Assembly: GCF_963921235.1 (NCBI RefSeq)
Contig: NC_086108.1
Location: 81,532,001 to 81,596,000 of the forward strand
DNA from: Mobula hypostoma
Lineage: Eukaryota
Length of the DNA stretch: 64,000 nt
Direction: 5' to 3'
In this document: positions 20,186 through 53,731 of the stretch, one piece after another
Layout of the letters: every line of letters starts with the position of its first letter
Position numbering within the stretch: the first letter of the stretch is position 1
Program-made: the position numbers and the translations under genes
Notes under the pieces: generated by a model
Told to the model about the DNA's origin: nothing
What the model saw: the letters and a program-made list of their open reading frames with translations, nothing else
Database searches by the model: none

Positions 20186-22119
20186 TGTTGTGTTTGGCCT
20201 TAATAAAGACAAACAGTGGAGGTAAAACTAGCACATTTTTATTTACAGGACACTCCAGGAATGATGGCTTCAGCTCGACCTAAGCGCATGCACCCAACTC
20301 CCCCAACGTCACTTCCAGTTCTGGGTGAACTGTCCACATCGCACATTGGGAACTGAAATTCTTTATTATGTATATACATAATAACACATCTTCCCCCTTT
20401 AAAGTTAAAAAAAAGCTATGTCCACGTAAATCTGCAGGGAACAATAATGCTTTCCAACAAAGATATTTACATTAACTTCAATTGTAATGAGCAAATACAG
20501 TTCCTTATTCACTCAGCAACTCTCGGACTCTGAGGTGGTTTGATGATCTTCTTTGGTCTACTATTGTGCTTGAGTTTGTGTTGTCTCGCAGCTCTACACA
20601 TATCCATAGCCTTTTCCAGCGTTAAATCTTTTTCACAGAGCAATCTTTCTCTGAGCCCATTATTTGAAGTCCTGCAACCTATTTTGTCTCTTCTAGTGAG
20701 ACTCTCAAATCTCCAATCTCACAGGACTTGCTCAGTGTGTGAAGCTCAGCTAAGTATTGGTAAAGCTAACACCTTGTTCCTGGTCACAGGAAAACAACTT
20801 ATATCTTTCAAACATGATGTGTTTACTTGCAACAAAATAACCTTAATTTTTTAAAATCAGAATGTCCAGTGTAAAAACAGTCTCATCAATTTGAAAGCTG
20901 TTGTAGATGTGCAAAGCAACTTCACCAATTATGTTTACAATGATAGATGCCTTCAATTTTCTATTTCCCCTCTGGCTCTACTCATTGCTAAATATATATT
21001 GGAGGCGGGAGGAGAATGTAGGAGGCTGGAGGAGAAGACAGCGGCGCAACGCAGCGCACGCAGCTCTCCGGTGAAATGATATCGTATTTGTAAGTGGGAT
21101 GCCGTGCACAATTCTGTTTTGATGGAGACAGACATGAGAAGGCACAGAGGAACATCTGGAGAAATTTCTGAAATGCCCGGCTCGCTGCCGCTGCTACTGT
21201 GCGATCAAGAATCTCCGGAAGGAAGGCCGCAAAATCTCCGGTTTTGCCTGCTGCTGGCAACCGAGGCTGGGGTTGAAGCGTTTGGCAGAGATGGTGCTCG
21301 GTACTCAGTGTCAGAGGGCTGATCAGAGCTCCAAGTTTTCAGATGTCTCAGAGTCGGACTGTGGTCGGGCATGGCAGGGAAGTTTCTCGTCCTTCTCCCG
21401 TCTGCGTGAGATGCGGGACTTTCGAGAGACTTTGAACTTTTTTACTATGCCATGGCCTGTTCTTCATCAAGTTATGGTATTGTTGCAGTGTTGTAACTAT
21501 ATGTTATAATCATGTGGGTTTTGTTAGTTTTTCAGTCTTGGTCTGTCCTGTGTTTCTGTGATATCACACCGGAGTAATATTGTATCATTTCTTAATGCAT
21601 GCATTACTCAATGACAATAAAAGAGGATTGCGTGTCCTCATAGTCTAATCTATTCTAATCTGATCTAATTAAATTGTCGTTTGAAGTGTTTCCAGTTATC
21701 AGCTGGATTTCCAGTCAACTGCATCAGTGTGGGAGAATTTAACTCATCCATTATGGAACTTCTCAGGCTCTCGCACCAAGAGACTTGGATGAACAATGGC
21801 AGCTGCAGGACACAACCTGCGCTCTGGCTAGCAGTTTCTCTCCATCGCTTTCTTAATCACTCGTGGTACATTTACTCTCCATGCTTAGTCCTTATGGCAA
21901 CTTCTGATGTTATGTTTGTTCTTAATAAAAGACAAACTTAGCGAGAGTAAAACTAACACATTATTTATTTACAGCAATGGCTCTAGCTTCACATGACCGC
22001 GTGCGGACTGCTCATGGCTTCAGCTCGACCTGAGCGCATGCAACCAGCTCACCGAACGTCACTCCCGTATTGCAGACTAGGAGCTGAAGTTCCATATTAT
22101 GTACACACATAATAACACA
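20186..22119 (-). mobile_element. Internally deleted Gypsy (Mag-like) LTR element with partial gag only
   Basis: LTRs at 20186-20388 and 21908-22119; TSD TAGAG/TAGAC; PPT AAAGGGGGAAGA; partial PBS TCAGAAGT. Gag from ATG 21751 (MDELNSPTLMQLTGNPADNWKHFKRQF...GLRERLLCEKDLTLEKAMDMCRAA), then an integrase-tail-like SRPKKIIKPPQ. Confidence 0.85.
21000..21668 (+). mobile_element. ~650-bp non-autonomous retroelement inserted in the Gypsy gag
   Basis: Homologous over its length to 43806-44462 (opposite strand). Ends CAATAAAAGAGGA...(TCTAA)n. Splits the gag codons QF|NIYLA. Confidence 0.8.
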
Positions 22120-22722
22120 TAGACCAGCAGAGCTTAAATCAAGATGAACTAAAATATTTAATATGATGCAAAATAAGACTTATGAAATAAAACAACGTTC
22201 AGGAAACAAAGCAAAAAGATAGAATGTAGAACATTGAAGAGTCTAGCACAGAAAGAGTTCCTTATATTATATTTCTTCTATTTAAATGTTCCGTGGGTTA
22301 ACAGTAAAGGATCATATTCTGGAAGAACTGGAGAACTTTTATTTACAATAATAAACAAATGTGTCTCAACCCCGCCATGTGCTGAAACATTCTGGCAAAC
22401 CCCGCACATGCTCAGTGCTGTCCAATCAGATACTGGCACGTCTTTGCACGTGATATCACCACACCTTCCCTTCCTTAAAAAGAAAAAATAAATAACAACA
22501 TTAATCAAAGCAAAGACATAATTCAACAAGTCTCAATCAGTCTCTCAGTGGGTTTACGAACATGAGTAGACCTTCTAAGTGGTACACACAGGTCTTGCGT
22601 TTCCTTGTTATTATTTACATGTTTTGTCCCGTCTGCACCAGTTAACTGAATCTCTGAAGAATCACATCTTCTTTTCCTTAAAAAGAAAAACAAATAACAA
22701 CATTAACCAATAAACAAATCAG

Positions 22723-24325
22723 CTAACGGAAACTCTGAAGTTGGCTCTTCACTATCTGAGCCATGACCCTTTTCTTTTTCTTCTTCTTTTCTGCTTTAAG
22801 CTTTTCTTTATGTATCTCAACTAAACTTTTTGGTATACTCTCACATGCCTCTTGGTTAGAATCTGGAATTTCAGGTAAGCAGTTCACACTATCCTCCTCA
22901 GCAATCTGCTTCCCTGCTTCTGTTTGGACTGTATCTTTCCTAATACCTTCCACTTCCATTTGTAATGAAATATGAATCATCTTTTCTTCATCTCATTCAT
23001 TCATTAACTGTGAAATCTCTTTTTTATGCTGTGACTTCATCATTTCAATAAAACTTCTCAATTCCTTTACTTGTGCTTTCACTTCTTCCTTATACTTTGC
23101 CCACTGTGAACGTTCTTGCTCTAGATGGTGATTATACTGTATCTCATATTCTCTCAGTCTCTCTTTCATTATCGCTTGCATTGAAGCAACCTCTTCCTGC
23201 TGTTGCTTTTTCATATCACCAATTGCCTCCTGTTTGGTCGTCTCAGACACTGCAGCTACTGCTTTTATATTCTTCATGTCAGCACTTTCATAAAGCACAT
23301 CTATATAAAATTCCTCACGTTCATCTTCAATCACTGCATTTACTTGTTTCATTTCATTTTCCTTCTTTCTACTTCTACAACAGCATGAAAAACGATTAAT
23401 CTTACCGCAGCTGTAGCAAAGTTTGCCATATGCGAAACACTGACTTAGATGGTGTTCCCGCGCACAGCGATCACGACTTTTCTTTTCAAATGCCGTCTTG
23501 CTCTCCATCGATTTTGTCAACGTATTATTATACTTCTTGATATAAAGAAGAGGAAAAATAGCCCTTAACTCGGCAGTGGAGTTATTGGGGCACCGTCTTT
23601 TGACAGTGTTTCCGTAGCAAGCTATTCTTGTTTTTATTAGGCCGAGTTGCTAGCTCGACGCTCAACTCGACTTGGATTTGAACTCTGGAACCTTCGCTCC
23701 GGAGTCCGGCGCTGATATTATTGTGCCACCAAGCGGGACATTTCTTGCTATATTCGCGCTTTTTATCAGCATTTACATTAAAGTTTTCAACAAAAACCTC
23801 TTCAGCCTGTGACATTACGGTCTCAGAATCTTTGCAGAGCACAAAAGCTTTTTCGAAATTTAAATCTTGCTCTCTCAACAGCCTTTCTCTCAGTGCATTA
23901 TCTCAAATGCCTCAAACAAGTCTATCTTTAATAAGAGAGTCTGTGAGCAATCCAAACTCGCACGTTCTACTACACTTTCTTAACTCCATAACATACTGAT
24001 CAATCGTTTCAGCAATCCTTTGCACACATGTGAAGAATTTATATCGGTCATATGTTAAGTTCTGCTTAGGTAAACAAAATACTTCAAATCTGTCCATTAT
24101 GGACTTTAAATTGAAATTATCTCCATCTTCAAAGACAAAATTATTATATACCTCTACTGCGTCATTCCTGATTACATGGAGCAGAAGCGCAGCTTTGGTT
24201 TTTTCTGATTTCTCTTCATAATCGATCACTGATAAGTACAGTTCAAACTGTTGCTTGAAGATCCTTCAATTCTCTGCTACATTCCCAGTCAGCTGAAGTT
24301 TTGGTAGGAGTTGTAAACCTTCCAT
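22723..24325 (-). pseudogene. Disrupted chimeric ORF: Gag + rabaptin (RABEP1/2)-like + SH3KBP1-like + SLU7-like segments
   Basis: ATG 24325 and ORFs 24229 and 23878 share one frame. After removing the SINE plus one TSD, ORFs 23520 and 22980 continue it. Only four point stops (24268, 23914, 23905, 22995). Gag motifs LTGNVAEN.RIFKQQF, LRERLLRE.DL and a degenerate double Zn-knuckle. Confidence 0.85.
23545..23737 (-). mobile_element. Short tRNA-like SINE inserted in the gag
   Basis: A-box-like TGGCACAAT and B-box GAGTTCAAATCC. Degenerate 15-bp TSD at 23530-23544 and 23738-23752 (12/15 match). Confidence 0.75.
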
Positions 24326-24603
24326 ATTACTGTTTGCAGTTCGAACTTATTTCCTTCTCTTTTTTTTTCGATTATCTTCGATTCTTGATTCTCAATTCTC
24401 CCGTATCATTCTTCCAGAAGCACTTCTGACGCCATGTTATATTTCTTCTATTTAAACGTTCCGTGGGTTAACAGTAAAGAATCGTATTCTGGAAGAATTA
24501 GAGAACTTTTATTTACAGTAATAAATAAATATGTCTTAACCCCGTGCATGCTCAGTGCTGTCCAATCATGTACTGGCACATCATTGCACGTGATATCACC
24601 ACA

Positions 24604-25120
24604 CCTTCAGCTCATCATGTCTATGCCAAGCATTGATGTCAATGTAAACTAATTCCTTCTGCTGCACATGAACGTAACTCTCTTTTGCCTGTTTAAATGC
24701 CACTGTCTGTGCTTCTATCATCTCACCTGGCAACTATTCCCTGCACTTGTGTAAAACGTTTACCTTTGTAAATCTCCTTTAAACTTTCCCCCCTTACATT
24801 AAAACTCTAGTATATGACATTTCCACACTGGAAATACAACACTGACTATCTACCCATATCTATACCACTCCGAATTTTATATCTTTCTACCAAGTTGCCC
24901 CTCAGCCTTTGATACTCCAATGAAAACAATCCAACTCTCCTTCTATCCAATGCACTCCAACCCAGGAACATGCTGGTGAACATCTTCTGACCCCTCTCCA
25001 AAGCCTTCACATTCTTACTATGGTGTGGTGACAGAAATGCGCAGATCTGTGCGAAGGTCCCAGCAATCTCCTCGTTTGCTTCCTTTAGTATTCCAGGATA
25101 GATCCCATCAAGCCCTGGGG
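24604..25120 (-). mobile_element. CR1 LINE fragments
   Basis: SPGLDGIYPGILKE and GLFSLEYQRLRGNLVERYKI remnants. Confidence 0.75.
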
Positions 25121-26226: not shown

Positions 26227-28478
26227 ATAGAAACATAGAAACATAGAAAATAGGTGCAGGAGTAGGCCATTCGGCCCTTCGAGCCTGCACCACCATTTAT
26301 TATGATCATGGCTGATCATCCAACTCAGAACCCCGCCCCAGCCTTCCCTCCATACCCCCTGACCCCTGTAGCCACAAAGGCCATATCTAACTCCCTCTTA
26401 AATATAGCCAATGAACTGGCCTCAACAGTTTCCTGTGGCAGAGAATTCCACAGATTCACCACTCTCTGTGTGAAGTTGTTTTTCCTAATCTCGGTCCTAA
26501 AAGGCTTCCCCTCTATCCTCAAACTGTGACCCCTCGTTCTGGACTTCCCCAACATCGGGAACAATCTTCCTGCATCTAGCCTGTCCAATCCCTTTAGGAT
26601 CTTATACGTTTCAATCAGATCCCCCCTCAATCTTCTAAATTCCAACGAGTACAAGCCCAGTTCATCCAGTCTTTCTTCATATGAAAGTCCTGCCATCCCA
26701 GGAATCAATCTGGTGAACCTTCTTTGTACTCCCTCTATGGCAAAGATGTCTTTCCTCAGATTAAGGGACCAAAACTGCACACAATACTTCAGGTATGGTC
26801 TCACCAAGGCCTTGTACAACTGCAGTAGTGCCTCCCGGCTCCTGTACTCGAATCCTCTCGCTATAAATGCCAGCATACCATTCACCTTTTTCACCGCCTG
26901 CTGTACCTGCATGCCCACTTTCAATGACTGGTGTATAATGACACCCAGGTCTCGTTGCACCTCCCCTTTTCCTAATCGGCCACCATTCAGATAATAATCT
27001 GTTTTCCTATTTTTGCCACCAAAGTGGATAACTTCACATTTATCCACACTAAATTGCATCTGCCATGAATTTGCCCACTCGCCCAACCTATCCAAGTCAC
27101 CTTGCATCCTCTTAGCATCCTCCTCACTGCTAACACTGCCACCCAGCTTCGTGTCATCCGCAAACTTGGAGATGCTGCATTTAATTCCCTCATCCAAGTC
27201 ATTAATATATATTGTAAACAACTGGGGTCCCAGCACTGGGCCTTGCGGTACCCCACTAGTCACCGCCTGCCATTCTGAAAAGGTCCCGTTTATTCCCACT
27301 CTTTGCTTCCTGTCTGCTAACCAATTCTCCACCCACACCAATACCTTACCCCCAATACCGTGTGCTTTAAGTTTGCACACTAATCTCCTGTGTGGGACCT
27401 TGTCAAAAGCCTTTTGAAAATCCAAATATACCACATCCACTGGTTCTCCCCTATCCACTCTACTAGTTACATCCACAAAAAATTCTATGAGATTCGTCAG
27501 ACATGATTTTCCTTTCACAAATCCATGCTGACTTTGTCCGATCATTTCTCCGCTTTCCAAATGTGCTGTTATCACATCCTTGATAACTGACTCCAGTAGT
27601 TTCCCCACCACCGACGTTAGGCTAACCGGTCTATAATTCCCCGGTTTCTCTCTCCCTCCTTTTTTAAAAAGTGGAGTTACATTAGTCACTCTCCAATCCT
27701 CAGGAATTAGTCCAGAATCTAACGAGTTTTGAAAAATTATCACTAATGCATCCACTATTTCTTGGGCTACTTCCTTAAGCACTCTAGGATGCAGACCATC
27801 TGGCCCTGGGGATTTATCTGCCTTCAATCCCTTCAATTTACCTAACACCACTTCCCTACTAACATGTATTTTGCTCAGTTCCTCCATCTCACTGGACCCT
27901 CTGTCCCCTACTATTTCTGGAAGATTATTTATGTCCTCCTTAGTGAAGACAGAACCAAAGTAATTATTCAATTGGTCTGCCATGTCCTTGCTCCCCATAA
28001 TCAATTCACCTGTTTTTGTCTGCAGGGGACCTACATTTGTCTTTATCAGTCTTTTCCTTTTTACATATCTATAAAAGCTTTTACAGTCCGTTTTTATGTT
28101 CCCTGCCAGTTTTCTCTCATAATCTTTTTTCCCCTTCCTAATTAAGCCCTTTGTCCTCCTCTGCTGAACTCTGAATTTCTCCCAGTCCTCAGGTGAGCCA
28201 CTTTCTCTGGCTAATTTGTATGCTTCTTCTTTGGAATTGATACTATCCCTAATTTCTCTTGTCAGCCACGGGTGCACTACCTTCCTTGATTTATTCTTTT
28301 GCCAAACTGGGATGAACAATTGTTGCAGTTCATCCATGCAACCTTTAAATGCTTGCCATTGCATATCCACCGTCAATCCTTGAAGTGTCATTTGCCAGTC
28401 TATCTTAGCTAATTCACGTCTCATACCTTCAAAGTTACCCCTCTTTAAGTTCAGAACTTTTGTTTCTGAATTAACTAT
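26227..28478 (-). mobile_element. Young 5'-truncated CR1 LINE
   Basis: (CATAGAAA)n tail, TSD GGGTTAC at 26220-26226 and 28479-28485, uninterrupted ORF2 segment. Confidence 0.97.
26325..28424 (-). CDS. CR1 ORF2 reverse transcriptase (N-truncated, no endonuclease)
   Basis: 699-aa open frame with KSPGPDG, NYRPVSLTS, QHGF, YLDFQKAFDKV, GVPQGPVLGP and KFADDTKL. Confidence 0.95.
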   Translation of the reverse strand: MRRELAKIDWQMTLQGLTVDMQWQAFKGCMDELQQLFIPVWQKNKSRKVVHPWLTREIRDSINSKEEAYKLARESGSPEDWEKFRVQQRRTKGLIRKGKKDYERKLAGNIKTDCKSFYRYVKRKRLIKTNVGPLQTKTGELIMGSKDMADQLNNYFGSVFTKEDINNLPEIVGDRGSSEMEELSKIHVSREVVLGKLKGLKADKSPGPDGLHPRVLKEVAQEIVDALVIIFQNSLDSGLIPEDWRVTNVTPLFKKGGREKPGNYRPVSLTSVVGKLLESVIKDVITAHLESGEMIGQSQHGFVKGKSCLTNLIEFFVDVTSRVDRGEPVDVVYLDFQKAFDKVPHRRLVCKLKAHGIGGKVLVWVENWLADRKQRVGINGTFSEWQAVTSGVPQGPVLGPQLFTIYINDLDEGIKCSISKFADDTKLGGSVSSEEDAKRMQGDLDRLGEWANSWQMQFSVDKCEVIHFGGKNRKTDYYLNGGRLGKGEVQRDLGVIIHQSLKVGMQVQQAVKKVNGMLAFIARGFEYRSREALLQLYKALVRPYLKYCVQFWSLNLRKDIFAIEGVQRRFTRLIPGMAGLSYEERLDELGLYSLEFRRLRGDLIETYKILKGLDRLDAGRLFPMLGKSRTRGHSLRIEGKPFRTEIRKNNFTQRVVNLWNSLPQETVEASSLAIFKRELDMAFVATGVRGYGGKAGAGF

Positions 28479-29668
28479 GGGTTACGGGTTTGATGTTTTC
28501 ACTGCCGTATCAGGGTGAGTGACCTGTTAGTTTCCATGCGAGGAAGAGGTTGGTTTTGCAGTTTGTGAGTTTTGTTTCTTTTTCTTTTGCGTGCAGGGGG
28601 GTGGGTGTGGTGGTTGATGTCTCTTCTTTTAACGACTTTCATGACTTTTCTGTATTTTATGTCTCTCTGAAGAAGACCAACCTCAGGGGTGTATTCTGCG
28701 TGCATGCTTTGATAACAAAATGAACCTTTGAACCTTTGACTTGTGATGGAATAGTTCCAAATCACTGGGTATATTGAAGGCAGGAACGGGTAGACTTTTG
28801 ATTACAAAAGGAATCAGGGAATATGTGCTTAATTCAGGAAAGTGGTGTTGAGGTAAAATATCACTGAGTTGGCAAGGCACCGGGTAAGGCTGAATGGTCT
28901 ACACTTCCTTCTGTTTCTTAACTCATGTAATGATATTAACTTAAGCCATCAAATTTCAACCAAGTTATAACTGCCTGCAATCTAATTCTCTCTCTCACTA
29001 CATAGTTCATCCTTCATCATGCTGTTTTTGTGTAGCTTCTTTTTTTGTCATTAACTGCAATTCTCAGTCAAGATTGGGGTATGATGTAATCAAGTGACTA
29101 ATCTAATAACTAGTTGATGATTAACTGTTTAATAGCAACATATATTACAAACTAGAAAAAAGAGCCGTCAATTCCAATAAATGTTTAGCCAGTATGTAAA
29201 TTAAGTTACCAGAAAGTTAGAAAATGATTCTTCGTTTTCTTGGAAAAACTGCAGTAAATCATACAAGTTGAAGTTAATAGATAACATTTTGCTAATGGCT
29301 GCTATTTCAATTGCGAAAGTCGCATTCATTAAAGATTGTTTAATATTTTTGCAAAATAATTCATCTTATTAGGAGCCAATGATCCGGAGGGAGGTTTCTG
29401 TTTTGTTTCAACAGGCTGGTGTAATAGGTAGAGTAGCAGCTCTAACAACCCAGGGTCCATCCTCACTTCCAAAGCTCCCTTTGTGGAATTTGTTTGTTTC
29501 CTCTTTAACTGGATGGTCTTTCCTCCGGGGCATCTGCTTTCCTCCCACATGCAAAAATGTGCCGGCTGGTTGGTTAAGTGGCAATTGTAATTGTGCTTTG
29601 TGTAGGAAGGCAGTTGGAGAATTGGTGTGGGGTGAAGGGTATCACAGAGTAGATCACTGGTAAGGGAG

Positions 29669-30655
29669 GACAATAGACAATAGGTGCAGGAGTAGGCCAT
29701 TCAGCCCTTTGAGCCAGCACCACCATTCACTGTGATCATGGCTGATCAACCACAATCAGTATCCAGTTCCTGCCTTATCCCCATAACCTTTGATTCCACT
29801 ATCTTTAAGAGCTCTATCCATCTCTTTCTTGAAAGCATTCAGAGACTTGGCCTCCACAGCCTTCTGGGACAGAGCATTCCATATATCCACCACTCTCTGG
29901 GTGAAAAAGTTTTTCCTCAACTCCATTCTAAATGGCCTACCCCTTATTCTTAAACTGTGGCCTCTGGTTCTGGACTCACCCATCAGCAGGAGCATGCTTC
30001 CTGCCTCCAGCGTGTCCAATCCCTTAATAATCTTATATGTTTCAATAAGATCCCCTCTCAGCCTTCTAAATTCCAGAGTATACAAGCCCAGTCACTCCAA
30101 TCTTTCGACATATGACAGTCCCACCATCCCAGGAATTAACCTTGTGAACCTACGCTGCACTCCCTCAATAGCAAGAATGTCCTTCCTCAAATTTGGAGAC
30201 CAAAACTGCACACAGTACTCCAGGTGTGGTCTCACCAGGGCCCTGTACAGCTGCCGAAGGACCTCTTTGCTCTTATACTCAATTCCCCTTGTTATGAAAG
30301 CCAGCATGCCATTAGCTTTCTGCACTGCCTGCTGTACTTGCATGCTTGCTTTCAGTGACTGATGTACAAGAACACCTAGATCTCGTTGTACTTCCCCTTT
30401 TCCTAACTTGACTCCATTTAAATAATAATCTGCCTTCCTGTTCTTACCACCAAAGTGGATAACCTCACATTTATCCACATTAAACTGCATCTGCCATGCA
30501 TCTGCCCACTCACCCACCCTGTCCAAGTCACCCTGCATTCTCATGACATCCTCCTCACATTTCACACTGTCACTCAGCTTTGTGTCATTGGCAAATTTGC
30601 TAATGTTACTTTTAATTTTTTTAATTCCCTCATCTAAATCATTAGTATATATTGT
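29669..30655 (-). mobile_element. CR1 LINE, 5'-truncated
   Basis: (CAATAGA)n tail; ORFs 30092-30670 and 29756-30085 give the RT C-terminal part with FANDTKL and one stop. Confidence 0.93.
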
Positions 30656-31179
30656 AGAATGGGATTGCACTGAAAGTCAACACAGATTTCAACTTATATA
30701 AAGGAAAATATGAGACATCACTTTAAAAGACCATTGACAAAAAAAATTGAGTTCCTTACAAATCCAACACAAATTGGTCATGTAAAAGGGAATAGGCCGA
30801 GATTCTGATGTTGAAGCCATCTCAAATGTTGTTCAATTAGCTGCAACTAAGATTGTGAAATCTCCCGAATTGATTCAGACTAAACTCCTTTATATCACTT
30901 CATTCATGAGTTTGAAAGTTATCTATCAGTGCAACAGGGAAGTGACCTTTATTAACCATAATACTGAAGATAATGTGGCTTTTACAGTCTGAACACAAAG
31001 TTCACTGCACTCTGGGTGAAGAAACTTCTACCCATCTCAGTTCTGAATGGCAGACACAGTATATGTCACCACAGACTGTGATCTTTCGTTCGAGATACTG
31101 CTGCTTCAAATCCACTGTCATCTTCTGATCGCAAGAGATTTAAGGCCAGTCCATTTATTCTCTGCACATGTGACAAGTC

Positions 31180-48770: not shown

Positions 48771-49827
48771 TAATACTGTTACGTACCCCGTAACTGGGTT
48801 GCCAAACCAGCAGAAATGGATCACTCAGTTGGAGTCTGGAGTACTAGAACTAAGAAAGTTTTATTAAAGAAACAAGCAACACAGTAATCGAAAGGATAAT
48901 AAATGCAACAATTCAACAATGATAACCACACATGTGCACAGAATTAAGATAACAGCATCAATCAAGCTCTATCGTTGTCTAGGGGTAAATGACCAATTTC
49001 AAAATGACTCAAAGTTCAGTCCAGTTTGTAGTTCAGTTCGCAGTAATCGTTGCCATGGCGATGGACAAGGTGGGGGAAGAGAGACAGAATAGGAACAACT
49101 GATCATTCAGAACACTGCTTCACTCACAGACCAGCGGGATGGCTCACAGACCAGCGAGATGGCTCACAAACAGCTTTTGGGCAGGTCCTTGGTGATGTCA
49201 CCTGAGGTCACCGACTGTGACCCCTCCTCCAGATGCGGTCGATCCTCTGCAGTGAACCCGGCACCCAGGCAAGGGCGGACACACACCGGGTTCCCGCTGA
49301 TCGTACCTTTCCACCCTTGTCGTTGTCCGATACTTCTCACCCACTCGTGAGAAGCGCACCGCTTCCAGGGTCTCGTTACCTCGGGTGGCGTGTGTCCCTG
49401 TCTTAGCGAACCTGTCCCTTTTTATCCCCCTGCTGGGGTATCGCCTGTCCATCACTTCAAACAGTTCAGGGTTCAAAGGGGGGAGCCGCTCCAGACAGCT
49501 CTCTCTCCCACATCCCTTCATTACACATCTCCAGACGCTGCTCCATTGTTCCTTATCTCTCCTTCCCCTGAGGGCAGGTGGCAGACCAACTGCTGATGCC
49601 ACTGATGCTAGCCCAGGCCAGCAAACATCTTAATTTTATGTGTATTCTTGTAACACTTCCCCCCTTTAAGGATTTTTACCGGGAGGTAAAAATTACAAAC
49701 ATGACTACATTATCTGATACATACACAATATACATCTTTAACAGTTATTTAGCTAATACAGAGAATTTGAAGCTGTCAACACCTTGACAGACAGTCATCA
49801 CATTTTCTGTTCCTTTTACACGTGTTA

Positions 49828-50376
49828 TTAATAATCCCTTAGACCAGGCTCCAACTCAGCAAACTTCATAGTGGCCAAAAACACTGATGAATTGCGACCA
49901 ATGTAACCTCTCATTTGGTTTTGTCCCGGACCACAACAACAAGGGTCGTCCCATTCCGACTCAATTTTCTCTCGCAAGGGCTTAGTAGGAGGGGGACGGG
50001 TATTGACCGCAGAGTTATTGCAAAACTTCCTGCAGTACCCCACCATCTCCAAGAGCCTTCTGAGGGCCCTCTTGTCTATCGGGGTTGGGAGGTCAGCGAT
50101 AGCCTGCACTGTAGCTTGCATCACTGCCAGCTGCCCCTGTGTCACCACAATTCCCAGGTAAGTGACCCTTGTGTGGCCGAATTCATTTTTTTCAAGGTTC
50201 ACTATCAAGCTGGCTTCAGACAGCCGTATTAAATTGCCAATACACACCTCTGTGTTCATCAGCCCTTTAGTCACTGAATTACTCAAAAAATATGGGTGTT
50301 GTTTACTTGGCTGCCCTATTGTAACCACAATCACCCAAGTCCCAGTTCTTTGCATTTCCTCGGGACAATCAAACAC
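49828..50376 (-). pseudogene. Degenerate RT remnant (no YxDD)
   Basis: KQHPY and LSEASLIVNLEKNEFGHTRVTYLG...LRRLLEMVGYCRKFC match the RT N-flank and thumb; the catalytic core is absent. Confidence 0.85.
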
Positions 50377-52748
50377 ATGGGTGCGAGTCGTTTAATTACT
50401 CCTTCGGGGATTAAGGGAGAGACCTTATCAGTAGACCTGGCCAAAACAATAGCCTTCTCCCATCTGACCGATCCCATCCTAATCTTTTCAAAATGGTTCT
50501 TTTCTCTTATCAGGGGGCCCCTAGCTTCATTGATTTCCACGCTAACACCGACTAGGTTTGTTAGCATATCAAAAGCCGGTGACCGTCTCAGTTCGCGTCG
50601 GTCATGATCAATAACATTTTTCCCCCTGGGCAGCCGGTAAATCTCTTTCATGATTCCACCAACTGTTTCCTCCAGCACCGCAAAATGTCCACCGGGGGGT
50701 ACCTCGTGGGCCATGTTAAAAACCTCATCCCCATAACTCTTTTGCACCACCCCCCACTCCTCATCTGCGGATGCTGTACTTGATTTCCCTTTCTTCCTTA
50801 GCACTTCCTCATCCGCACAATAGCTTGTCAAGGCTGTGTCAGAGAGAGCGGTCTCGGCAAAAACCATCAGCCCCTCGTCTCGCTCCTGCGTCTGCACAAA
50901 TTCTTTCCTGGCTACTGCTACGTCCGTCCCAGCTCCCTCACTACCTCTTATCTCACTACACCCTGTCTCATACAAGGTTGGCAGAAATGTTTCAGCCAAA
51001 TTCACCATCGCGGGCGGGGCCTCCATGCTGGCAGGCTGACCCGTCAATCTCACGACTGGGAACACGATTCCTCCGGCGATGTCATTACCGAGCAAGACTT
51101 CCACGTCTTTCATCGGTAATTCGGACCTCACCCCGATCGTGACTAGTCCAGAGACCAGGTTGCTCTGTAAGTGTATCTGGTGCAAAGGGACTGGCTCTGT
51201 CCCTTCCCCAACACCTTTGACCTCTACCTCCCCAGTCTGGGTCTCTGAGCTAAACTCTAATACACTCTTCAGTATTAGTGACTGACACGCTCCCGTGTCT
51301 CTCCAGATCCGCACTGGAACTGGTTTTAACCTCTTTTTCACTGACACCAGTCCGGCCGAGATAAACCTCTCGCGCCCTTCCTGGACTTTTTCAGACCTGT
51401 CCTTCCCTAGCGGTTCGCTTAACAGCTCAATACAGCCATTCAAAATTTCCGCTTTTCCTTTCCCCGTCTCCTTCCTTGGGGCAAAGCACCTGGACGCAAA
51501 GTGTCCGACTTTCCCACAATTATAACAGACGACCCCAGGAGACTTCCTACCAGACTGCTCCCGGTCTACCTTATCCTTTTCACTAGTCCCCGGCTTACTT
51601 TCTGACTTTTCCAGCGGACTCTCCCCTCCGTCCTGACTACCCTTCTGGTAGCCTTTACTCGGGGCAAACTTCATTTTATGCGTCAACGCATACTCATCCG
51701 CTAACTTAGCAGTTGCGGCTAACGTGGCTGCCTCTTTCTCATCGAGGTAGGGTCTCATACCCTCAGGGACACAACCTTTAAACTGCTCAATCAGAATCAG
51801 CTGCAGCAGTCTGTCATAATCCCCCTCTACCCCTTTCGAGGCGCACCAACGCTCACAATATGTTTGCATCTCGCGAGCAAACTCCAAATACGTGCAGTCC
51901 CACTGTTTCCTCGCATTCCGGAACCTCTGCCGGTATGCCTCCGGGACCAACTCATAAATCCTGAGGATGGCCTCCTTCACCACCTCATACTTCTGGGCAT
52001 CTTCCGCGGATAAAGCGGAGTAAGCTTGTTGGGCCTTCCCTTTCAGTACACTCTGAAGTAAGACAACCCACTTATCCCTCGGCCATTCCTGACTTATGGC
52101 CACTTTTTCGAAATGGAGAAAGTACCGATCCACATCGGTATCGTCAAATGGGGGAACCAGCCTAACCTCCTGGGTCGCCCGGAACCCTCCACCTTGGTTC
52201 GGCACGAGCCCCTGCTCGGCCCTTATCTTTAACTTCTCCAGCTCAAATTCCCTTTCCCTCTGTTTCTCCTCTCTCTCCAACTGTCTGTCCCTCTCTCTCT
52301 CTTCTCTCTCCAACTGTCTTTCTCTCTCTTGCCTTTCTACCTCTTTCTCTCTCTCCCGCCTTTCTAACTCTCTCTCTTTCTCCCGCCTTTCTAACTCTCT
52401 CTCTTTCTCCTGCCTTTCTAACTCTCTCTCTTTCTCCTGCCTTTCTAACTGCTTCTCTTCGTGTTCTAACTGCCGTACCCGGAACTCGTGCTCGAGTCTC
52501 AGTTTTTCAAGCTGTACCTGTACCGCGTCTCCAGCAGGTTTTTCAATAGACACCTCCCCCAGCTCACCTTGGGGAAACACACCTTTAGATACATAGTGCT
52601 CTACAATAGCTCTGTGTATCTCCTCTCTCCTCATTGTCGACTTCACCTTAGCAAGATTCACCCGTTTTGCCACAGCTATCAATTCCGATTTCCTGGCATC
52701 CTCTAATGCCTCCAAGGTCGGTGCCTTTATAAATTCCTCAACCTCCAT
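50331..52748 (-). CDS. Gag (SCAN-like capsid, CCHC knuckle) - aspartic protease - pol remnants
   Basis: 805-aa open frame: E/R/K repeat, VPEAYRQRFR...ILIEQFK, CYNCGKVGHFASRC, RDTGACQSL, LLGND, and integrase Zn-finger remnant AHEVPPGGHF. Confidence 0.92.
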   Translation of the reverse strand: MEVEEFIKAPTLEALEDARKSELIAVAKRVNLAKVKSTMRREEIHRAIVEHYVSKGVFPQGELGEVSIEKPAGDAVQVQLEKLRLEHEFRVRQLEHEEKQLERQEKERELERQEKERELERREKERELERREREKEVERQERERQLEREERERDRQLEREEKQREREFELEKLKIRAEQGLVPNQGGGFRATQEVRLVPPFDDTDVDRYFLHFEKVAISQEWPRDKWVVLLQSVLKGKAQQAYSALSAEDAQKYEVVKEAILRIYELVPEAYRQRFRNARKQWDCTYLEFAREMQTYCERWCASKGVEGDYDRLLQLILIEQFKGCVPEGMRPYLDEKEAATLAATAKLADEYALTHKMKFAPSKGYQKGSQDGGESPLEKSESKPGTSEKDKVDREQSGRKSPGVVCYNCGKVGHFASRCFAPRKETGKGKAEILNGCIELLSEPLGKDRSEKVQEGRERFISAGLVSVKKRLKPVPVRIWRDTGACQSLILKSVLEFSSETQTGEVEVKGVGEGTEPVPLHQIHLQSNLVSGLVTIGVRSELPMKDVEVLLGNDIAGGIVFPVVRLTGQPASMEAPPAMVNLAETFLPTLYETGCSEIRGSEGAGTDVAVARKEFVQTQERDEGLMVFAETALSDTALTSYCADEEVLRKKGKSSTASADEEWGVVQKSYGDEVFNMAHEVPPGGHFAVLEETVGGIMKEIYRLPRGKNVIDHDRRELRRSPAFDMLTNLVGVSVEINEARGPLIREKNHFEKIRMGSVRWEKAIVLARSTDKVSPLIPEGVIKRLAPMCLIVPRKCKELGLG

Positions 52749-53731
52749 TTCTGCTGTTTGTCTTTTCTTTCTTTCGGGAATTTTAACCCAATCAATTTAC
52801 TCCGTCCCAAATTTAGCGTTCAAAATCCCGGACGAGCCCCCACTTATGTTACGTACCCCGTAACTGGGTTGCCAAACCAGCAGAAATGGATCACTCAGTT
52901 GGAGTCTGGAGTACTAGAACTAAGAAAGTTTTATTAAAGAAACAAGCAACACAGTAATCGAAAGGATAATAAATGCAACAATTCAACAATGATAACCACA
53001 CATGTGCACAGAATTAAGATAACAGCATCAATCAAGCTCTATCGTTGTCTAGGGGTAAATGACCAATTTCAAAATGACTCAAAGTTCAGTCCAGTTTGTA
53101 GTTCAGTTCACAGTAATCGTTGCCATGGCGATGGACAAGGTGGGGGAAGAGAGACAGAATAGGAACAACTGATCATTCAGAACACTGCTTCACTCACAGA
53201 CCAGCGGGATGGCTCACAGACCAGCGAGATGGCTCACAAACAGCTTTTGGGCAGGTCCTTGGTGATGTCACCTGAGGTCACCGACTGTGACCCCTCCTCC
53301 AGATGCGGTCGATCCTCTGCAGTGAACCCGGCACCCAGGCAAGGGCGGACACACACCGGGTTCCCGCTGATCGTACCTTTCCACCCTTGTCGTTGTCCGG
53401 TACTTCTCACCCACTCGTGAGAAGCGCACCGCTTCCAGGGTCTCGTTACCTCGGGTGGCGTGTGTCCCTGTCTTAGCGAACCTGTCCCTTTTTATCCCCC
53501 TGCTGGGGTATCGCCTGTCCATCACTTCAAACAGTTCAGGGTTCAAAGGGGGGAGCCGCTCCAGACAGCTCTCTCTCTCCCACATCCCTTCATTACACAT
53601 CTCCAGACGCTGCTCCATTGTTCCTTATCTCTCCTTCCCCTGAGGGCAGGTGGCAGACCAACTGCTGATGCCACTGATGCTAGCCCAGGCCAGCAAACAT
53701 CTTAATTTTATGTGTATTCTCGTAACAATAC

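Follow-up and report, generated by a model that had tools for sequence, protein, structure and literature searches.

Acutely transforming retroviruses are helper-dependent and carry gag–oncogene fusions in which host cDNA lies in frame with gag and replaces pol, and these fusions are selected for the activity of the host protein in somatic cells. LTR-mediated retroposition in animals, as described by Tan et al. (2016; PMC5131818), puts part of a spliced mRNA between two LTRs in place of the internal open reading frames (ORFs), with microsimilarity at the switch points; the mouse "Super" retrocopy described there is a chimera of four genes, and LTR retrocopies can be re-copied as non-autonomous elements. 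The same source presents maize Bs1 as a non-autonomous LTR element holding exonic pieces of three unlinked host genes, with switch points common to its copies (PMC5131818), and crocodilian endogenous retroviruses (ERVs) are described as having captured KIT-ligand and nectin3 (PMC4299795).

Here we analyze a window of 64,000 nucleotides from the ray Mobula hypostoma (contig NC_086108.1, positions 81,532,001 to 81,596,000), in which the polymerase region of a Gypsy LTR element is replaced by spliced RABEP1, SH3KBP1, and SLU7 sequence. As in the gag–oncogene retroviruses, host cDNA is fused to gag in place of pol, but no such selection is seen on the ray cargo. Like the retrocopies described by Tan et al. 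(PMC5131818), the element lacks introns, keeps both LTRs, has its internal ORFs replaced rather than interrupted, and changes sequence at microsimilar switch points; like the secondary retroposition described there, it occurs as dispersed copies with identical switch points and their own target-site duplications (TSDs). Unlike those cases, which are described from one or a few insertion sites, the ray chimera has at least 88 copies, its intermediates survive as subfamilies, and all of its amplified junctions keep the gag-pol frame. Bs1 is a plant element with 1–5 copies per genome (PMC5131818), whereas the ray element is a vertebrate Gypsy present in tens to hundreds of copies with the cargo fused to gag. 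The crocodilian ERVs are likewise germ-line vertebrate LTR elements that multiply with captured host mRNA and are shared between species, but they are described as retroviruses carrying single, near-whole ORFs in 6–9 copies under purifying selection (PMC4299795), whereas the ray element is a Gypsy carrying short multi-gene fragments with no selection seen on the cargo.

The original prediction had taken window positions 22936–23088 for a captured SH3KBP1/CIN85 C-terminal coiled coil with ∼31/51 identity to the human protein, and both statements held. Read on the minus strand (23088–22936), the segment translates into the CIN85 C-terminal coiled-coil peptide; a plus-strand reading of 22936–23088 was rejected, that frame being closed. 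Searched against 177,635 PDB sequences with X at the stop codon, the peptide gave significant matches to two human CIN85 coiled-coil structures only (5abs, E 3.5e-13; 2n64, E 4.8e-13; third match, 0.068), and 31 of 51 residues were identical to the human coiled coil when counted in the alignment. Fourteen homologs of the peptide were found: 12 full-length cartilaginous-fish SH3KBP1-type proteins (82–90% identity) and two chimeric, element-derived stingray proteins. In Mobula protein P0003, 46/51 residues are identical, and to this protein the exons of the host SH3KBP1 gene in the same genome (G000:C18:~80.65-80.91 Mb) are 91–100% identical; 145 of the 153 nt of the segment match those host exons. 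Parts of three exons are present and both introns are precisely absent, with exact joins at the host GT/AG splice sites, a loss of introns that the original prediction had pointed to. The last-exon piece ends five codons short of the host stop in a 7-nt microhomology with the element's integrase tail, as it does in an SH3KBP1-only subfamily described below, and is followed by element sequence with no poly(A). From the 95% nucleotide identity and the matching exon ends the segment can be assigned to SH3KBP1, and the identity of both the segment and its carrier element is near certain.

The stop codon at 22995–22993, a TGA correctly suspected of being a decayed sense codon, is genuine and is found in 2 of 63 triple-cargo copies. 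A sense codon occupies this position in the host exon, in the other 61 triple-cargo copies, in 10/10 SH3KBP1-only copies, and in 6/7 copies of a RABEP1-SH3KBP1-RABEP1 layout, the seventh having a gap; the stop is decay of single copies. The A-run made by the SH3KBP1 exon join at 23024–23023 forms a hot spot of slippage, seen in many copies (siblings L125–L144), and no sign of a common origin was seen among the A-run slips of SH3KBP1 copies.

Table 1. Features of the captured SH3KBP1 segment and its carrier element, in window coordinates
Feature	Position	Strand	Basis or remark
Whole non-autonomous Gypsy (Metaviridae-type) LTR element, 2339 bp, dead copy	22265..24603	-	
Target-site duplication, upstream copy	24604..24608	-	
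5' LTR	24435..24603	-	
Primer-binding site directly after 5' LTR	24421..24434	-	Same motif there in most siblings
gag	23288..24325	-	Frames; aligns to gag of autonomous parent copies
Secondary insertion in gag, ~195 bp	23545..23739	.	Sibling alignments break here
Captured RABEP1 mRNA piece	23089..23287	-	Pfam Rabaptin, host exon matches
RABEP1/SH3KBP1 switch zone	23077..23088	-	4 exact shared nt in 10/12 similar stretch
SH3KBP1 third-last exon, 3' part	23024..23088	-	63/65 nt to host
SH3KBP1 second-last exon, whole; contains stop codon	22960..23023	-	60/64 nt to host
SH3KBP1 last coding exon, 5' part (24-25 nt)	22935..22959	-	22/24 nt to host
Linker from parent's integrase tail after in-frame 33-nt deletion	22921..22934	-	Parents L067, L073, L079, L083; L014
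Captured SLU7 mRNA piece	22746..22920	-	SLU7 match, host exon matches
Integrase-tail remnant, early stop, duplicated pre-LTR stretch, polypurine tract	22464..22745	-	
3' LTR	22265..22463	-	
Target-site duplication, downstream copy	22260..22264	-	4/5 match

The carrier (Table 1) has LTRs that are 92.0% identical over 175 nt, a 5-bp TSD matching at four positions, and a primer-binding site that we take to be of the tRNA-Leu type. Its gag shows a degenerate CCHC knuckle and a weak PNMA-like match (Pfam PNMA, E 0.0017, below the cut-off) and in this copy stops, frameshifts, and an insertion interrupt it; the protease is deleted. The insertion is absent from the sibling copies compared, occurs as a high-depth repeat in contigs of four sequencing runs, and is likely a SINE. 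The pre-LTR stretch is duplicated, 22663–22710 resembling 22460–22508, and an Rfam search of 22000–25000 gave no match above chance. High identity to host exons is what a domesticated host gene or an ordinary SH3KBP1 processed pseudogene would also show, but LTRs, primer-binding site, polypurine tract, and TSD flank a cargo made of partial exons of three genes, and the locus is one of at least 88 dispersed copies, here with stops, frameshifts, and an insertion. With LTRs present and a 3' poly(A) absent, a domesticated gene and an L1-type processed pseudogene were ruled out for the window copy, and we give such an origin practically no credence.

Elsewhere in the window, positions 48777–53727 hold a much younger LTR element with 880-bp LTRs that are 99.4% identical and a 4-bp TSD. 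Its minus strand carries an 821-codon open frame (50331–52796) with a long Glu/Arg repeat, a SCAN domain, and a CCHC knuckle, followed by protease-like and degraded pol-like sequence; the element is likely non-autonomous, was active recently, and belongs to a different Gypsy clade. A LINE-type reverse transcriptase frame of 718 codons lies at 26325–28481 on the minus strand (RVT_1, E 1.7e-32), and a second fragment related to it, 78% alike, lies at 29673–30656.

Two other host genes flank the SH3KBP1 piece. Upstream is RABEP1 (Pfam Rabaptin, E 1.8e-30), represented by parts of two exons with the intron missing, 93.6% and 89.8% identical to the host exons at G000:C71:53.16-53.17 Mb. Downstream, after the 14-nt linker, is SLU7 (E 4.6e-15), represented by parts of three exons with two introns missing and exon matches of 85–91% to the host gene at G000:C21:67.57-67.59 Mb; in the window copy a 10-nt loss in a lysine run shifts its frame. 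The original prediction had recognized the SH3KBP1 segment and a first segment joined to it but missed SLU7, the third host gene, directly downstream of the linker. In all, five host introns are absent with exact exon joins, one from RABEP1 and two each from SH3KBP1 and SLU7. One host SLU7 intron (G000:C21; L045 ∼8310) has a noncanonical GC donor, and the captured copies are spliced exactly there. A miniature derivative (L111:1990–2110) jumps from just past the primer-binding site into SLU7, with gag and the other cargo lost. A subfamily carrying SLU7 alone was considered and rejected: L111 is a copy with an internal deletion, and every other SLU7 match extends over the same short stretch.

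Of 100 candidates searched with the SLU7-side peptide, 89 matched; the host exon accounts for one of these, so the RABEP1-SH3KBP1-SLU7 triple cargo is present in at least 88 places. With element DNA as query, all 40 scored matches (of 971 candidates) were 88–100% identical over 838–901 nt, one being the window itself. The RABEP1-SH3KBP1-SLU7 order was found at 63 of the loci examined, and each junction of the window element is common to 58–66 loci examined. For the 45 of 63 triple-cargo copies with a detected LTR pair, median LTR identity is 91.7%, and a TSD matching at 4/5 positions or better occurs in 19 of the 24 copies that could be measured; with this LTR divergence and their own TSDs, the triple-cargo copies are thus an old burst of true retrotransposition. 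The cargo is open throughout in 18/63 copies, a count biased upward by the choice of the set by best matches. Contigs of four sequencing runs, of uncertain RNA or DNA origin, bridge cargo junctions.

The parent of the family was found with the integrase stub, for which 150 matches of 899 candidates were scored and 20 loci examined. Most of these loci are decayed copies of a 4.4-kb autonomous Gypsy of the order gag-protease-RT-RNase H-integrase, as read from ORF translations of parent copies L065–L084, and the Pfam families RVT_1, RNase H-like, and integrase-zinc occur in protease relatives. In the derived subfamilies cargo replaces the RT-RNase H-integrase core of the parent and both LTRs are kept. 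One subfamily (L011–L020) carries only SH3KBP1, as a long piece whose search gave 74 matches including one host exon; four copies (L021, L022, L165, and L205) carry only RABEP1; seven (L023–L028 and L030) have a RABEP1-SH3KBP1-RABEP1 layout; and among the triple-cargo copies, L047, L054, and L099 still have the protease. A separate subfamily ending near the second-last SH3KBP1 exon, suggested by protein matches that end at aa ∼580, was rejected, the 20 loci examined being SH3KBP1-only copies with A-run slips or later insertions. At L013:566–1040 an SH3KBP1-only copy is immediately preceded, on its upstream side, by a solo 3' end of the autonomous parent, an arrangement that suggests tandem or nested insertion. 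No further cargo genes were found in 60 loci chosen by element DNA (some of them duplicates), one of which holds a LINE-like insert, nor by protein names among 10 relatives of the protease.

In the triple subfamily SH3KBP1 ends at the same 7-nt switch point as in the SH3KBP1-only subfamily, and a trimmed integrase stub stands before SLU7. This common switch point and the integrase-tail stub mean that the triple subfamily descends from the SH3KBP1-only capture, and the SH3KBP1 segment likely reached the window element by recombination between sibling elements and not directly from the host gene. A one-step capture of the coiled coil beside RABEP1 was rejected on the same two shared features. 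The host origin first proposed for the segment therefore stands, but the route was likely through a sibling already carrying a longer SH3KBP1 stretch. Two stingray proteins, P0001 and P0009, have the SH3KBP1-only and RABEP1-SH3KBP1-RABEP1 layouts, respectively, with the same switch points at the protein level, so both subfamilies are likely older than the split of these rays, as far as protein sequences can tell.

The RABEP1/SH3KBP1 junction (23088–23077) is in frame for both genes, and the microhomology suspected there was borne out, with four exactly shared nucleotides inside a stretch alike at 10 of 12 positions. Twenty junction types were read by eye from the sequence, with microhomologies of 2–8 shared nt. 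The 14 types that recur at four or more loci all keep the gag-pol frame and, where host-derived, the frame of the host protein as well. Between host exons and parent ORFs the chance that a shared 3- to 9-mer is in frame is 0.375–0.444, giving a probability of 0.43^14 = 7e-6 for 14 in-frame junctions by chance, a figure for junction types that are not fully independent and for loci picked mostly through protein searches. Inside the element the in-frame fraction of shared 8- to 9-mers rises to 0.56–0.64, in few cases. At the protease/SH3KBP1 junction two microhomologies adjoin, one of 10 nt that is out of frame and one of 5 nt that is in frame, and the product of the in-frame one alone was seen (nine loci, including duplicates). 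Six junction types occur at single loci: three are cleanly in frame (L029, L048, and L186), L201 is in frame overall, L072 is out of frame at the switch with the ORF kept open by a preceding 1-nt loss, and in L184 the frame is lost 2 nt past the switch. In L072 and L201 the frame is open only through shifted or trimmed cargo codons. An amplified out-of-frame subfamily like L072 was rejected, no other locus spanning the junction at E 1e-30 among the 40 that were scored out of 367 candidates, and no amplified out-of-frame junction type was found among the 60 loci chosen by element DNA (with duplicates).

We consider it fairly probable that spliced SH3KBP1, captured by template switching, is passenger cargo, with selection acting on an open frame and not on the CIN85 protein. 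Host mRNAs would have been copackaged in the parent's particles, and double template switches would have replaced the RT-RNase H-integrase core; SH3KBP1- and RABEP1-carrying siblings would then have recombined at 23088–23077, SLU7 would have been switched into the integrase tail, the protease deleted, and each product copied in trans by the parent's enzymes. Out-of-frame products would fail to amplify, most likely through nonsense-mediated decay (NMD) triggered by a premature stop and a long untranslated tail, or alternatively through translation being uncoupled from packaging. Premature stops in gag are described as triggering NMD of Rous sarcoma virus RNA (PMC2925335). Were a junction of the triple subfamily out of frame, the remaining tail would measure about 1 kb at most, which makes a modest trigger of NMD; at the last junction of this subfamily the frame hardly shifts the position of the stop.

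The frame bias might instead arise without any frame selection, if codon-like microhomologies favored in-frame switches and the rest were chance and ascertainment by protein searches. Shared k-mers are indeed somewhat enriched in frame, the loci come largely from protein searches, and among 17 young Drosophila LTR retrocopies described by Tan et al. the longest ORF is in frame with the parent protein in 14 (PMC5131818). We nonetheless judge this account distinctly improbable: at 0.43 per junction, 14 of 14 greatly exceeds expectation, the DNA-chosen loci gave no amplified out-of-frame type, and the +1 A-run slips of SH3KBP1-only copies do not cluster on the tree (five changes for five rows, on a mostly unresolved tree). 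Very unlikely, in our estimate, is a further reading, by which the element must keep its frame so that the parent's integrase C-terminal tail stays attached to its own Gag, or so that the polyprotein is processed correctly. In the SH3KBP1-only and RABEP1-only subfamilies the frame does run through the cargo into the integrase tail as far as the parent's own stop, but the triple subfamily stops ∼16 codons past SLU7 and lacks the protease, yet reached at least 88 copies.

To separate selection on the frame from selection on its content, variants among the 63 triple-cargo copies were scored column by column against the commonest codon, those in ≥10% of copies counting as shared. Shared cargo variants comprised 5 silent, 17 replacement, and 0 stop changes, against 85, 316, and 19 among rare variants (p 0.79), whereas in gag the silent:replacement counts were 51:61 for shared and 124:423 for rare variants (p 2e-6). 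Set directly against each other, shared cargo and gag variants give p 0.059, and five or fewer silent changes of 22 have P 0.024 at gag's ratio; with 22 shared cargo variants in all, the cargo test is of low power. In the SH3KBP1-only subfamily (36–38 copies) shared variants were 4:11 and rare variants 56:162, and along the element lineage two silent and four replacement changes were fixed in 105 codons. The integrase of the parent set gave no significant contrast (10:15 versus 118:262, p 0.38), a reminder of the test's limited power. Cargo variants thus look neutral and gag looks constrained, and purifying selection on the captured ORF was not seen in shared or fixed cargo variants, in a test of low power. 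Measured from the commonest codon, gag has about double the diversity of the cargo (8.7% versus 4.7%), likely through exchange with autonomous helper lineages; the constraint signal of gag may be imported from these lineages and so is no proof of this gag acting in cis.

These counts bear on the possibility that the fusion is useful as a protein, the RABEP1-CIN85 helix multimerizing Gag or tethering it to endocytic partners or membranes and the lysine-rich tail from the splicing factor SLU7 serving nuclear import or RNA binding. Every amplified 5' junction keeps the cargo in its native frame, two of the three cargos are coiled-coil pieces from endocytic adaptors, all amplified subfamilies with SH3KBP1 retain the CIN85 coiled coil almost entire, and none of the 22 shared cargo variants is a stop. 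The CIN85 coiled coil is described as binding phosphatidic acid and c-Cbl (PMC4096430), and captured host genes under purifying selection are described in the crocodilian ERVs (PMC4299795). The single-sequence model of a natural open copy, moreover, predicts one helix over residues 81–186 with pLDDT 96–98 across the RABEP1/CIN85 junction (pTM 0.34), in line with the continuous fusion that the original prediction had envisaged. However, both genes encode similar residues across the switch zone, so the microhomology accounts for the unbroken helix, which by itself is not proof of function. The purine-rich cargo (66–70% versus 57% for the parent) favors microhomology through composition alone, cargo identity varies freely between successful subfamilies, and most of the shared and fixed changes in the cargo replace residues, at a neutral ratio. 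A useful fusion is accordingly unlikely, and any role implied earlier for CIN85 oligomerization found no support in these neutral-looking variants. Equally doubtful is the view of this Gypsy family as a serial in-frame exon shuffler in which the Gag fusion gave helper-dependent elements a replication advantage and hence left in-frame products only.

The capture mechanism is already known, and what is unusual here is the copy number, the survival of intermediates, and the frame bias. No description of this SH3KBP1/RABEP1/SLU7 element family was found in the literature covered, with Repbase, Dfam, and subscription journals outside its scope, and the available text of the manta and devil ray genome paper (10.64898/2026.10.27.761883) gives repeat totals only. 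The stingray element copies P0009 and P0001 are annotated as "rab GTPase-binding effector protein 1-like" and "uncharacterized protein," respectively, a warning for annotation in that copies of this kind are entered under the gene name rab GTPase-binding effector protein 1-like. A mechanism usually seen as single young retrocopies has left in the ray genome the parent, three captures, recombinants, and a triple chimera in tens of copies, and a stingray shares two of the subfamily types. The family is a natural experiment on what helper-dependent LTR elements must keep, and its 14 of 14 amplified junctions in frame, together with a neutral-looking cargo, lead to a testable rule: the open frame would be needed and its content irrelevant.
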